From: Candidatus Latescibacterota bacterium
GTDB lineage: Bacteria; Latescibacterota; UBA2968; GCA-2709665
Length of the DNA: 64,000 bases
Assembly: GCA_963667175.2 (NCBI GenBank)
Contig: CAXXXF010000013.1
Span: forward strand, 1 to 64,000
Reading direction: 5' to 3'
The position numbers and the translations under genes were made by a program. The notes beneath the pieces are model-generated. The model was not told the DNA's origin and did no database searches. It saw only the letters and a list, made by a program, of their open reading frames with translations. This document shows positions 51,537-52,931 of the stretch, piece after piece. The first letter of the stretch is position 1. The number at the start of each line of letters is the position of its first letter.

Positions 51537-51827
51537 TTAGACGACGATCAAGGGCGCGTCGATATGGACGTAGGGCTTCCCGAGCGCGGCGATGACGCGA
51601 TCCCCGCGCCCTTCGGCCGGCCCCAGATCGACGAACAGCACCTGATCGTCGTCGTGGTGAATGATCTCGGCCAACTCCGCCCGAAGGCGAACCATATCCT
51701 TACGCGTGAGCTGGCACTCGAATACCGACAACTGTAAGTGGTCGCCCCAGGCCCGCATGGTCTTGAAGACCTTTCGCAGACGTTTTGGGTCGGCTATATC
51801 GTAGGAGACGACGTAGGAATTGCGCAT
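51537..51827 (-). CDS. cas2: Cas2 (also the C-terminus of an in-frame read-through from the upstream ATPase)
   Basis: [48 protein letters not shown] upstream of ATG 51827. Confidence 0.93.
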
Positions 51828-52931
51828 CCGGACAACCTTTCTGTCAGGCTCTGCTTCACCTCGCGGTTCGGAAATCCCAGACGGTACGAGGGTCATTCCG
51901 CCCAGATTTCTCTCTCCGGTAATCGTCAGGCAGCCGGTCTGGAACAGGAGGGCCTCGGTACCGATGTGATCCACGTCGAAGGACGACAGCAGGTCGCTGC
52001 TGTCCACCATCTCGCCCAGTTCCTGGGAACTGACGCGGCGCTTGCACAGCGTATCGACCAGGAATGAGGGCGTACCGGTCTCGAACCAGTGGGCCTTGAA
52101 CTCGCGGCTGTCGAAGAGCAGGAGAATGTCGAAGGGGTTGTAGACCTTCTCCTCGCCAAGCCAACTGTAGCCGTTGTACCAGTCGCGGATCTCGTTCCGG
52201 TCGAGGCCGGGGAGTTCCGGGGCGAACACAGAGTCCAGGTCCGCCTCGGTGTAGCCGCAGACGGCGGAATAGCGCGGGTCCAGCGTGATGTCGATCAGGT
52301 TGTTGAGGCCGGAGAACGGTCCGGCCAGGGGAAACTTGTGGACACCGGTGAGAAGGCTGAACCGGACGTCGGCGTCGCTGGACTTGATCGCCGCGTAGAA
52401 GCCGAACAGGTAGTCGCCGATGGCGCGGGCGGTTTCGGGGGTGTCGAGGTTGTCCAGGATCGGCTTTTCGTACTCGTCGATGAGGACTGCCACGCGCCGG
52501 CCGGTACGCTCATGCAACTCCTCAAGCAGGCGCCCGAAGCGGAAGGACGGATCGTTGTCTCGAGGGGTTATCTCCGCCTGATCTTCCAGGACCTGCAATT
52601 GCGCCGCCAGTTCCGTCCGCATGTCCTCGGGCCCCCGGTAGTTGCCGTAGTCGCCGCCGCTGAAGTCGAGGCGCACCACCGGATGACGGACCGACCAGTC
52701 CCAGTGATCGTGGATGTGCAACCCCTCAAAGAGCGGTTCGTTGCCCTCGAACAGCTCCTTGCAGGTGTCGAGGAAGAGGCTCTTGCCGAAGCGCCGCGGG
52801 CGGGAGAGGAAGTAATGCTTGCCCACGTCGAGGAGACGCCGGATGTAAGCGGTCTTGTCGACGTAGTAGCAGTCCTGCTCGCGGATCTCGCGGAAGGTCT
52901 GAATGCCTATGGGAAGTCTGCGTCGGGTCAT
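51537..52931 (-). CDS. Truncated AAA-ATPase_like paralogue fused in frame to Cas2 (464 aa), or a pseudogene abutting cas2
   Basis: Starts [13 protein letters not shown], Walker [10 protein letters not shown], Walker B LIDEYEKP. No stop before cas2; nuclease domain absent. Confidence 0.65.

Follow-up and report, generated by a model that had tools for sequence, protein, structure and literature searches.

Does a reading frame that joins a P-loop ATPase to Cas2 encode a new enzyme of CRISPR adaptation, or does it record an accident? The question is raised by the window analyzed here, a 64,000-nt stretch (C13:1-64000, C13 being contig CAXXXF010000013.1) of an 18-contig, 5.5-Mb genome from Candidatus Latescibacterota. 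All genes discussed lie on its minus strand, where a frame running from an ATG at 52931 to a stop at 51537-51539 encodes 464 amino acids (aa) with no internal stop. An earlier note, made from the sequence alone, had described this frame as an ATPase fused to Cas2 in place of its own nuclease domain and had offered two readings, a nascent ATP-dependent adaptation module or the chance fusion of a pseudogene. We conclude that an accident, rather than a new adaptation enzyme, is the most probable explanation of the merged frame; with a probability of roughly 0.5, the frame is a real, recent and unselected frameshift that incidentally merged two genes.

An extra base that joins an ATPase gene to cas2

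The merged frame joins the ATPase part of a gene here called B2 to cas2 and follows a full-length paralog, B1. The features around the junction are:

52958..54508, minus strand: B1, full-length ATPase-nuclease of 516 aa with PF09820 and PF08011 (PDDEXK_9) domains (Pfam, AlphaFold2 (AF2) model)
51889..52931, minus strand: B2, ATPase part of the merged frame, codons 1-347 in its own frame (Pfam, alignment, tree)
51888..51888, minus strand: extra C, which moves the ATPase frame into the cas2 frame (B1/B2 DNA alignment)
51828..51887, minus strand: 20-codon 'linker', composed of the out-of-frame ATPase 3' end and the cas2 leader including a GAAAGG ribosome-binding site (sequence)
51844..51848, minus strand: CCTGA, putative junction of an older deletion that took the nuclease domain and most of the pre-cas2 spacer (sequence comparison)
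51794..51796, minus strand: TAG that ends the ATPase own frame if the extra base is removed, with a 34-nt overlap with cas2 (sequence, equivalent in the paralogous gene A2)
51537..51827, minus strand: cas2, 96 aa plus stop, with its own start (Pfam, NCBIfam)

Translation and Pfam confirm a stop-free protein without a nuclease domain. In the merged protein (P0001), PF09820 covers residues 7-202 with 190.8 bits (cut-off 26.1) and the Cas2 family PF09827 covers residues 373-437 with 64 bits; PF08011 has no Pfam match in it, while it scores 74.5 bits in B1 (P0002). The deposited annotation likewise has the merged frame as a single 464-aa protein. Alignment of B1 and B2 DNA reveals a single extra base, ACCCT-GTTCCGT versus ACCCTCGTACCGT, located 61 nt ahead of the cas2 ATG, and the similarity ends with ...GAGCCTGA (51844), 16 nt ahead of that ATG (51827). 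On both points the earlier note had read the sequence correctly, as it had for the intact Walker A motif and for the retained ribosome-binding site of cas2: Walker A (FGKS) and Walker B (VLIDEY) of B2 are intact when aligned with 29 intact relatives, and GAAAGG stands 8 nt upstream of the cas2 ATG.

Several observations characterize cas2 itself. The ATG and the preceding AGGTTGTCCGG are the same as in the stand-alone cas2 of the congener G009, where the start, AGGTTGTCCGGATG, is identical to that in the window. The 96-aa frame scores 67.8 bits against PF09827 (cut-off 23.8) and 33.4 bits against TIGR01573 (cut-off 24.5), and the PADLOC Cas2g profile aligns with residues 370-455 in the merged frame's product at 9.3e-26. 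The gene thus encodes a small stand-alone protein with its own start, beside cas1. That the merged frame is open is not improbable, since only 20 codons separate the shift from the cas2 ATG, the DNA has 61% G+C and the cas2 frame is one of only two possible shifted frames.

The same junction, lacking the extra base, recurs 19 kb off on the same contig in a paralogous module (window 51770-54555 versus C13:70796-73580, 89.8% over 2792 nt), which contains a full-length ATPase gene (A1), a truncated one (A2) and the first 58 nt of cas2. The A2 junction is identical, gagcctgacagaaaggttgtccggATGcgcaattcc, with the one base missing, and A2 is a 378-aa gene in its own frame with a TAG stop 34 nt inside the cas2 sequence. 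Since A2 shares the junction without the base, nuclease loss and abutment on cas2 predate the frame merger. After A2, the 58-nt cas2 5' fragment (about 19 codons; C13:70796-70868, L021 6796-6868) runs straight into the region upstream of the next cas7g, a scar from an adaptation module that was lost or displaced. Duplication of the whole CRISPR locus was considered as the origin of the two modules and rejected, as the similarity comprises only 2.8 kb (the two ATPase genes and the first 58 nt of cas2) and two short patches, and the effector genes of the two loci have no DNA-level similarity.

Further comparators came from public data. Four public runs (X1-X4) were compared as contigs; they represent relatives, and the assembly was derived from none of them (best share of words 0.45). 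In X1, X2 and X4, from three studies, one contig each spans position 51888 and each is one letter short there. These contigs show 10, 22 and 27 differences from B2, compared with 40, 37 and 34 for A2 over the same spans, which identifies them as B2 orthologs and not A2 copies. They also carry a T-to-A change at 51873 that restores LGYPNR in the ATPase own frame. The X3 contig joins 51838 to 52954, so that relative lacks the second ATPase copy. P0012, a 376-aa protein from another assembly, has an own-frame ending that overlaps cas2 as in A2. In G009, from the same genus, a long ATPase is followed by a 148-nt spacer, a 96-aa cas2 (99% identical) and cas4-cas1 (95%). The identical 96-aa Cas2 is called on three other contigs.

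A homologous fusion was found neither in the paralogous module nor in any of the three runs covering the site. Among 41 genomes, a match across residues 1-464 occurs in the window only (0 of 40 related genomes). Residues 345-464, searched against database proteins of 255-812 aa, gave five hits, none with PF09820: two Cas2-Cas4 proteins and three other or miscalled ones, in a search that sees cluster representatives only. For the exact 464-aa protein, the only contig on record is its own. The two Cas2-Cas4 proteins, P0004 (376 aa) and P0005 (717 aa), have an N-terminal Cas2 that is 70-72% identical to that in the window and is followed by Cas4 (PF01930, PF12705); they are cas2-cas4(-cas1) read-through fusions or miscalls in relatives of the window's adaptation module.

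Is the extra base real? It is absent from every comparator that spans the site, namely the paralogous module, P0012 and one contig in each of the three runs; its removal restores the conserved own-frame ending LG(Y/F)PNREVKQSL; and the merged protein has been recorded once. All this would be expected if the organism had the two-gene state and the extra C were present only in the deposited sequence, as a consensus or assembly error. Most long-read indel errors fall in homopolymer runs, however, and the context CCCT[C]GTACC contains none. In addition, B2 has a private TAT->TTT change at 51873, in the adjoining own-frame codon, which fits a lineage that truly diverged here. We therefore regard such an error as rather unlikely, though a serious contender, and a real mutation as about twice as probable as a consensus error. 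The conserved ending would also be restored if ribosomes skipped the extra base by programmed +1 recoding, yielding the ordinary short ATPase and the merged protein as a minor product. Nothing else speaks for this, the sequence ACC CTC GTA CCG shows no known +1 motif (a rare or stop codon after a slippery codon) by eye, and the site is not conserved, since relatives lack the base; we consider recoding extremely improbable.

Origin of the nuclease-less gene

Comparison of long and short genes points to how the ATPase gene came to abut cas2. At the deletion site the long ATPase reads ..GAGCCTGAACGAG, the cas2 leader of G009 reads ..GGTCCTGACAAACAAGAGG (longer extract ...GGTCCTGACAAACAAGAGGTTGTCCGGATG), and B2 and A2 both read ..GAGCCTGACAGAAAGG (longer extract ...GAGCCTGACAGAAAGGTTGTCCGGATG). 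The simplest reading is that a deletion between two CCTGA pentamers removed about 155 codons and most of the spacer. P0012, with a body of the long type, has the same deletion junction.

B2 is 75% identical to B1 (dS 0.62) and yet groups with a clade of short, nuclease-less ATPases described below, and we therefore rejected the idea that it is a simple truncated copy of its upstream paralog. B2 and A2 do not have the ending typical of that clade. Instead, their final 25 codons are long-type (84-88% identity with B1 and G009, 61-64% with A1) and end with PNREVKQSL, followed by the deletion junction; in B2 this ending is out of frame. With a short-clade body and a long-type ending, the B2/A2 gene is a mosaic. 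Of the 23 differing codons in the tract 229-296, 22 have in A2 the codon of A1 or B1, and the mosaicism plainly points to gene conversion.

An AF2 model of B1 based on an alignment of 102 diverse sequences reached a predicted local distance difference test (pLDDT) score of 93.8 and a predicted template modeling score (pTM) of 0.91; an earlier model from a shallow alignment (52 sequences, all at least 64% identical to B1) had a pLDDT of 55 and was discarded. The overall structure is composed of a P-loop ATPase domain, a helical/winged-helix part that ends in a β-hairpin (334-341, 344-350) and helix 354-368, two more helices, and a PD-(D/E)XK core at residues 436-515. The top Foldseek matches in the Protein Data Bank (PDB) are the archaeal Orc1/Cdc6 proteins 2qby_A, 2v1u_A and 1fnn_A, with weak scores (E-values of 4-8e-4, template modeling (TM) scores of 0.28-0.36, TMq 0.25-0.28, 13-14% identity); the signal transduction ATPases with numerous domains (STAND ATPases) CED-4, Apaf-1 and Avs3 score alike, and PAB2304 (2qen) is also among the best matches. 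A PDB sequence search found no relative of the ATPase. As the short forms end just past helix 354-368, they consist of the ATPase and winged helix and are close to Orc1/Cdc6 in size. In B2, the inserted base falls in strand 344-350, and the merged protein has lost half of this strand and helix 354-368. Among the lost residues, 102 family members show no or almost no variation at P352 and N353 and almost none at E355. Prediction of a complex between a 378-aa short ATPase and Cas2, run with two alignments, gave a score of 0.00 each and no answer; we treat it as neutral.

Taken stepwise, an ancestral ATPase gene next to cas2 would have lost its PD-(D/E)XK domain by deletion between a CCTGA within the gene and another 25 nt before cas2, leaving an ATPase-only gene of 376-378 aa with an own-frame TAG 34 nt inside cas2. 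This two-gene state is kept in the paralogous module, in a database protein and in the contigs of three public runs. With the two genes already overlapping by 34 nt, one base suffices to place them in one frame, and the assembly has this base, a C inserted at 51888; in the cell, the same insertion would have put the ATPase into the cas2 frame. Cas2 would still be made from its own ribosome-binding site and ATG. Translation starting at 52931 would give an ATPase without its winged-helix end, tied to Cas2 by a 20-residue acidic, proline-rich stretch. The mutation would be recent and probably mildly harmful or neutral.

A nuclease-less ATPase clade in type I-G loci

Although the merged frame is confined to one assembly, its ATPase part belongs to a recurrent group. 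Among the 120 matches listed for an A2 database query, 14 proteins of 366-378 aa contain PF09820 only. Thirteen of the 14 end in ...LG(Y/C)PNRAARxRLDRAL, followed by 1-8 residues and the stop, and these 13 are the short forms of what we call the 'short' clade (366-378 aa). The short forms share DEYEKP and RAI(R/G)DYLFGFYA with A2 and B2; long forms have DEYDKP in place of the former. A FastTree phylogeny over 347 B2 columns and 53 tips (29 intact long forms from loci, 7 of about 105 listed long forms, 13 short forms, P0012, A2 and B2) places the 13 short forms, A2 and B2 in a clade with support of 1.0 and no long form inside, while P0012 groups with long forms (support 0.98).

A locus scan with a back-translated short-clade motif found three loci in the species genomes, all in metagenome-assembled genomes titled Candidatus Latescibacterota. 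The motif is present in 5 of 168 genomes of the window's phylum (its own included) and in none of 14 genomes in its genus or 21 in its family. The five genomes contain six loci, all of type I-G, and each has its short gene between the effector genes and the adaptation genes:

G102, G103: cas3g - cas8g - short - long - long - cas2 - cas4cas1
G164: cas3g - cas8g - short - cas4cas1 - cas2
G167: long (interrupted) - short - cas4cas1 - cas2
G000, the window's genome: two loci, the B2 locus and the A2 locus

The stop of the short gene overlaps the cas4-cas1 start in G164 (TTGA) and G167 (ATGA). Such stop/start overlaps are the usual sign of translational coupling. Long forms also adjoin type I-G genes in G009, G015 and the metagenome locus L051. 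The wider PF09820/PF08011 family has 19,690 representatives at E <= 0.001, and of 80 metagenome loci with a family member, many of them short, only one had cas neighbors within the available sequence.

The ratio of non-synonymous to synonymous substitution rates (dN/dS, Nei-Gojobori method) is 0.24 for B1-B2 (dS 0.62) and also 0.24 for B2-A2 (dS 0.24); the earlier note had named a value near 1 between the two ATPase copies as a refuting outcome, and this is not what we observe. Long forms among themselves give 0.17-0.29. Of the six pairs among four genomic short forms, five give 0.38-0.46 (dS 0.27-0.32), and the near-identical pair G102-G103 gives 0.04 (dS 0.03). When the conversion tract is set aside, 23 of the codons that distinguish B2 from A2 are non-synonymous and 26 synonymous, against a neutral expectation of about 77% non-synonymous (binomial P = 6e-6). 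Conversion from intact paralogs can mimic such a purifying signal. At 130 family-invariant columns, B2 deviates at six and A2 at five, compared with 0-5 (median about 1, leave-one-out) in 29 intact copies; four of these deviations are motifs common to the whole short clade.

Family copies are numerous and not all intact. The window's genome contains eight, six of them within 40 kb of C13 (51-91 kb), and the copy at C13:85266-86252 is truncated and has a TGA inside. The third G102 copy (L135 12051-13363) is split over two frames, and one G167 copy (L138 11271-13668) is interrupted by about 1.3 kb.

Broken copies such as these, the removal of the nuclease domain by deletion, the deviations at invariant columns and the evident conversion in codons 229-296 would all fit B2 and A2 being dead remnants of a long ATPase-nuclease, in which case the frame after the deletion would be irrelevant and the low dN/dS a product of conversion by intact paralogs. 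Nevertheless, A2 (378 aa) and P0012 (376 aa) are intact frames, the split of 23 versus 26 codons holds outside the conversion tract, 13 further clusters of this clade in the database agree in length and share a conserved end, and dN/dS is also below 1 in the genomic short forms. We consider it unlikely that they are dead remnants; read in its own frame, the short form probably has a function.

A selected, functional fusion would tether an Orc1/Cdc6-like ATPase to the Cas2 dimer of the Cas1-Cas2 integrase for an ATP-dependent adaptation step. The frame is open with both domains recognized, dN/dS is below 1, clade genes stand next to adaptation genes in all six loci, with two stop/start overlaps, and Cas2 is found in other fusions, including the Cas2-Cas4 proteins among our database hits. 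Yet the fusion occurs in one assembly only, the frameshift at its junction deletes conserved ATPase structure, its linker is out-of-frame coding sequence plus the cas2 leader, and cas2 retains its own start signals. We therefore hold a selected fusion to be very unlikely. The nascent module proposed by the earlier note accordingly finds no counterpart in the paralogous module, 40 genomes, the database search or three runs, an absence that the note itself had listed as grounds for refutation. Its alternative, the chance fusion of a pseudogene, stands as to chance; 'pseudogene' is half right, in that the nuclease was lost earlier and the remaining ATPase part belongs to a conserved nuclease-less clade with a dN/dS of 0.24. 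Likewise, the motif divergence that it had pointed out does set B2 apart from long forms, though as a hallmark of the short clade and not as decay.

Several points weigh against an incidental frameshift. Both Pfam domains are well above cut-off in the merged protein. Purifying selection between B2 and A2 indicates that the ATPase part is not junk, so the merger could have consequences, and the coupling of short ATPases to adaptation genes elsewhere makes a working relation with Cas1-Cas2 conceivable. Because the base lies outside a homopolymer, it is likely to be real, and selection can act on a real mutation. The cluster that includes P0001 has a 96-aa Cas2 as its representative, and further merged forms could likewise escape the database search. 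Finally, the public-run contigs come from relatives of the source strain and say nothing on the base in the source reads.

The ATPase genes may have a broader role. On a speculative and distinctly unlikely reading, a variant of type I-G would have these genes as a genuine accessory cassette. The cassette would hold between one and three PF09820 members, among them the nuclease-less short form that resembles Orc1/Cdc6; it would stand between the effector genes and the adaptation genes, and the short form would be co-translated with the first of the latter. The short ATPase would then work with Cas4-Cas1-Cas2, for example in ATP-dependent binding or hand-over of DNA for spacer capture, and the Cas2 merger would be tolerated as the proteins already act side by side. 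Neither NCBIfam nor PADLOC has a model for the ATPase. In the literature on the PF09820 and PF08011 families and on type I-G, viewed at record level with supplements outside the search, we found no description of this CRISPR-linked ATPase family. The relevant passages of PMC10952713 list PF09820 under RADAR RdrA, PARIS and Old-tin. Those of a preprint on CRISPR-linked genes (10.1101/270033) do not name this ATPase family, which its supplementary tables might list.

Comparison with known systems helps to place the merged frame. Conserved Cas2 fusions reportedly include Cas2-Cas3 of type I-F and Cas2-DnaQ of some type I-E systems. In these too, Cas2 shares its polypeptide chain with an enzyme of potential use in adaptation; they are, however, conserved in many genomes with proper linkers, whereas the frame in the window is found in one assembly, was made by a frameshift and cuts the fold of its partner. 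In the same locus, directly downstream, the cas4g_cas1g fusion (NF049935) shows that adaptation genes of type I-G do fuse, but this is a family-wide curated architecture with its own model, and none was found for ATPase-Cas2. B1 is a typical PF09820 + PF08011 protein; B2 shares the ATPase part, Walker A and DEY with such proteins and differs in lacking the nuclease domain, and the family is mostly not beside cas genes. Like Orc1/Cdc6 and STAND ATPases, these proteins have an AAA+-type P-loop domain followed by a helical/winged-helix part, and the short forms are Orc1/Cdc6-sized (366-382 aa), but with weak scores and no sequence-level relative of solved structure we claim a resemblance of fold only, not membership. 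We found no difference from overlapping or coupled genes merged by a single indel, through decay or as an annotation artifact, and we assign the merged frame to this class.

The merged frame itself is of little weight, except as a warning that a single indel between overlapping genes can mimic a domain fusion. Of more interest, a large uncharacterized ATPase-nuclease family has members fixed in type I-G loci of one bacterial class, with a nuclease-less branch that appears to be under purifying selection and coupled to adaptation genes. If the coupling reflects function, this would be an ATP-driven accessory added to CRISPR adaptation.

The surrounding type I-G locus

The remaining genes of the locus are:

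55761..62314, minus strand: type I-G effector genes, whole set (NCBIfam and PADLOC profiles)
61106-62314, minus strand: cas7g (csb1) (profile match)
59624-61102, minus strand: cas5-6g (csb2) (profile match)
56686-59658, minus strand: cas3g (profile match)
55761-56867, minus strand: cas8g-like 'Cas3-extension' gene (profile match)
49714..51522, minus strand: cas4g/cas1g fusion, 602 aa (NF049935, 737.7 bits)
48240..49543, plus strand: CRISPR array, 18 repeats of 36 nt (array detection)

Read 5' to 3' on the minus strand, the order is cas7g, cas5-6g, cas3g, cas8g-like gene, a 1.2-kb spacer, B1, the merged frame, cas4g/cas1g (beginning 15 nt past the cas2 stop) and the array. The gene set is complete, with TIGR02621, NF049934, TIGR02570, TIGR02165, NF049935 and TIGR01573 all above cut-off (NCBIfam) and an array present; the locus is a type I-G CRISPR-Cas system.

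The 1.2-kb spacer between the cas8g-like gene and B1 (54509-55760) contains small frames, none with a Pfam match. Two patches in it, 55220-55451 and 55611-55742, share 85-89% identity with the corresponding spacer in the paralogous locus and may be a conserved non-coding element or a small gene. In the array, two adjacent repeat-spacer units (48832-48981) are 100% identical, so that a spacer has been duplicated; no other array in the genome has the same repeat.

Three full type I-G effector cassettes, dissimilar from one another, are arranged head to tail on the same strand over about 26 kb (55761-64000 and C13:64001-81501; L021, L139), and a single adaptation module was seen beside them. The first consists of cas7g, cas5-6g, cas3g and a 303-aa cas8g-like gene (L021 10864-17501), the second of cas7g, a 786-aa cas5-6g, an 866-aa cas3g and a 755-aa Csx17-type cas8g (L021 343-6668; C13:62226-64493), and the third is the window's own effector set. 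In the middle cassette, the 786-aa cas5-6g (L021 3034-5394) matches its profile at residues 1-240 and 493-781, as if some 250 aa had been inserted between the two stretches. Finally, a distant second cas2-like match with 41% identity and one internal TGA, at C2:268232-268570, hints at another CRISPR locus or its remnant.

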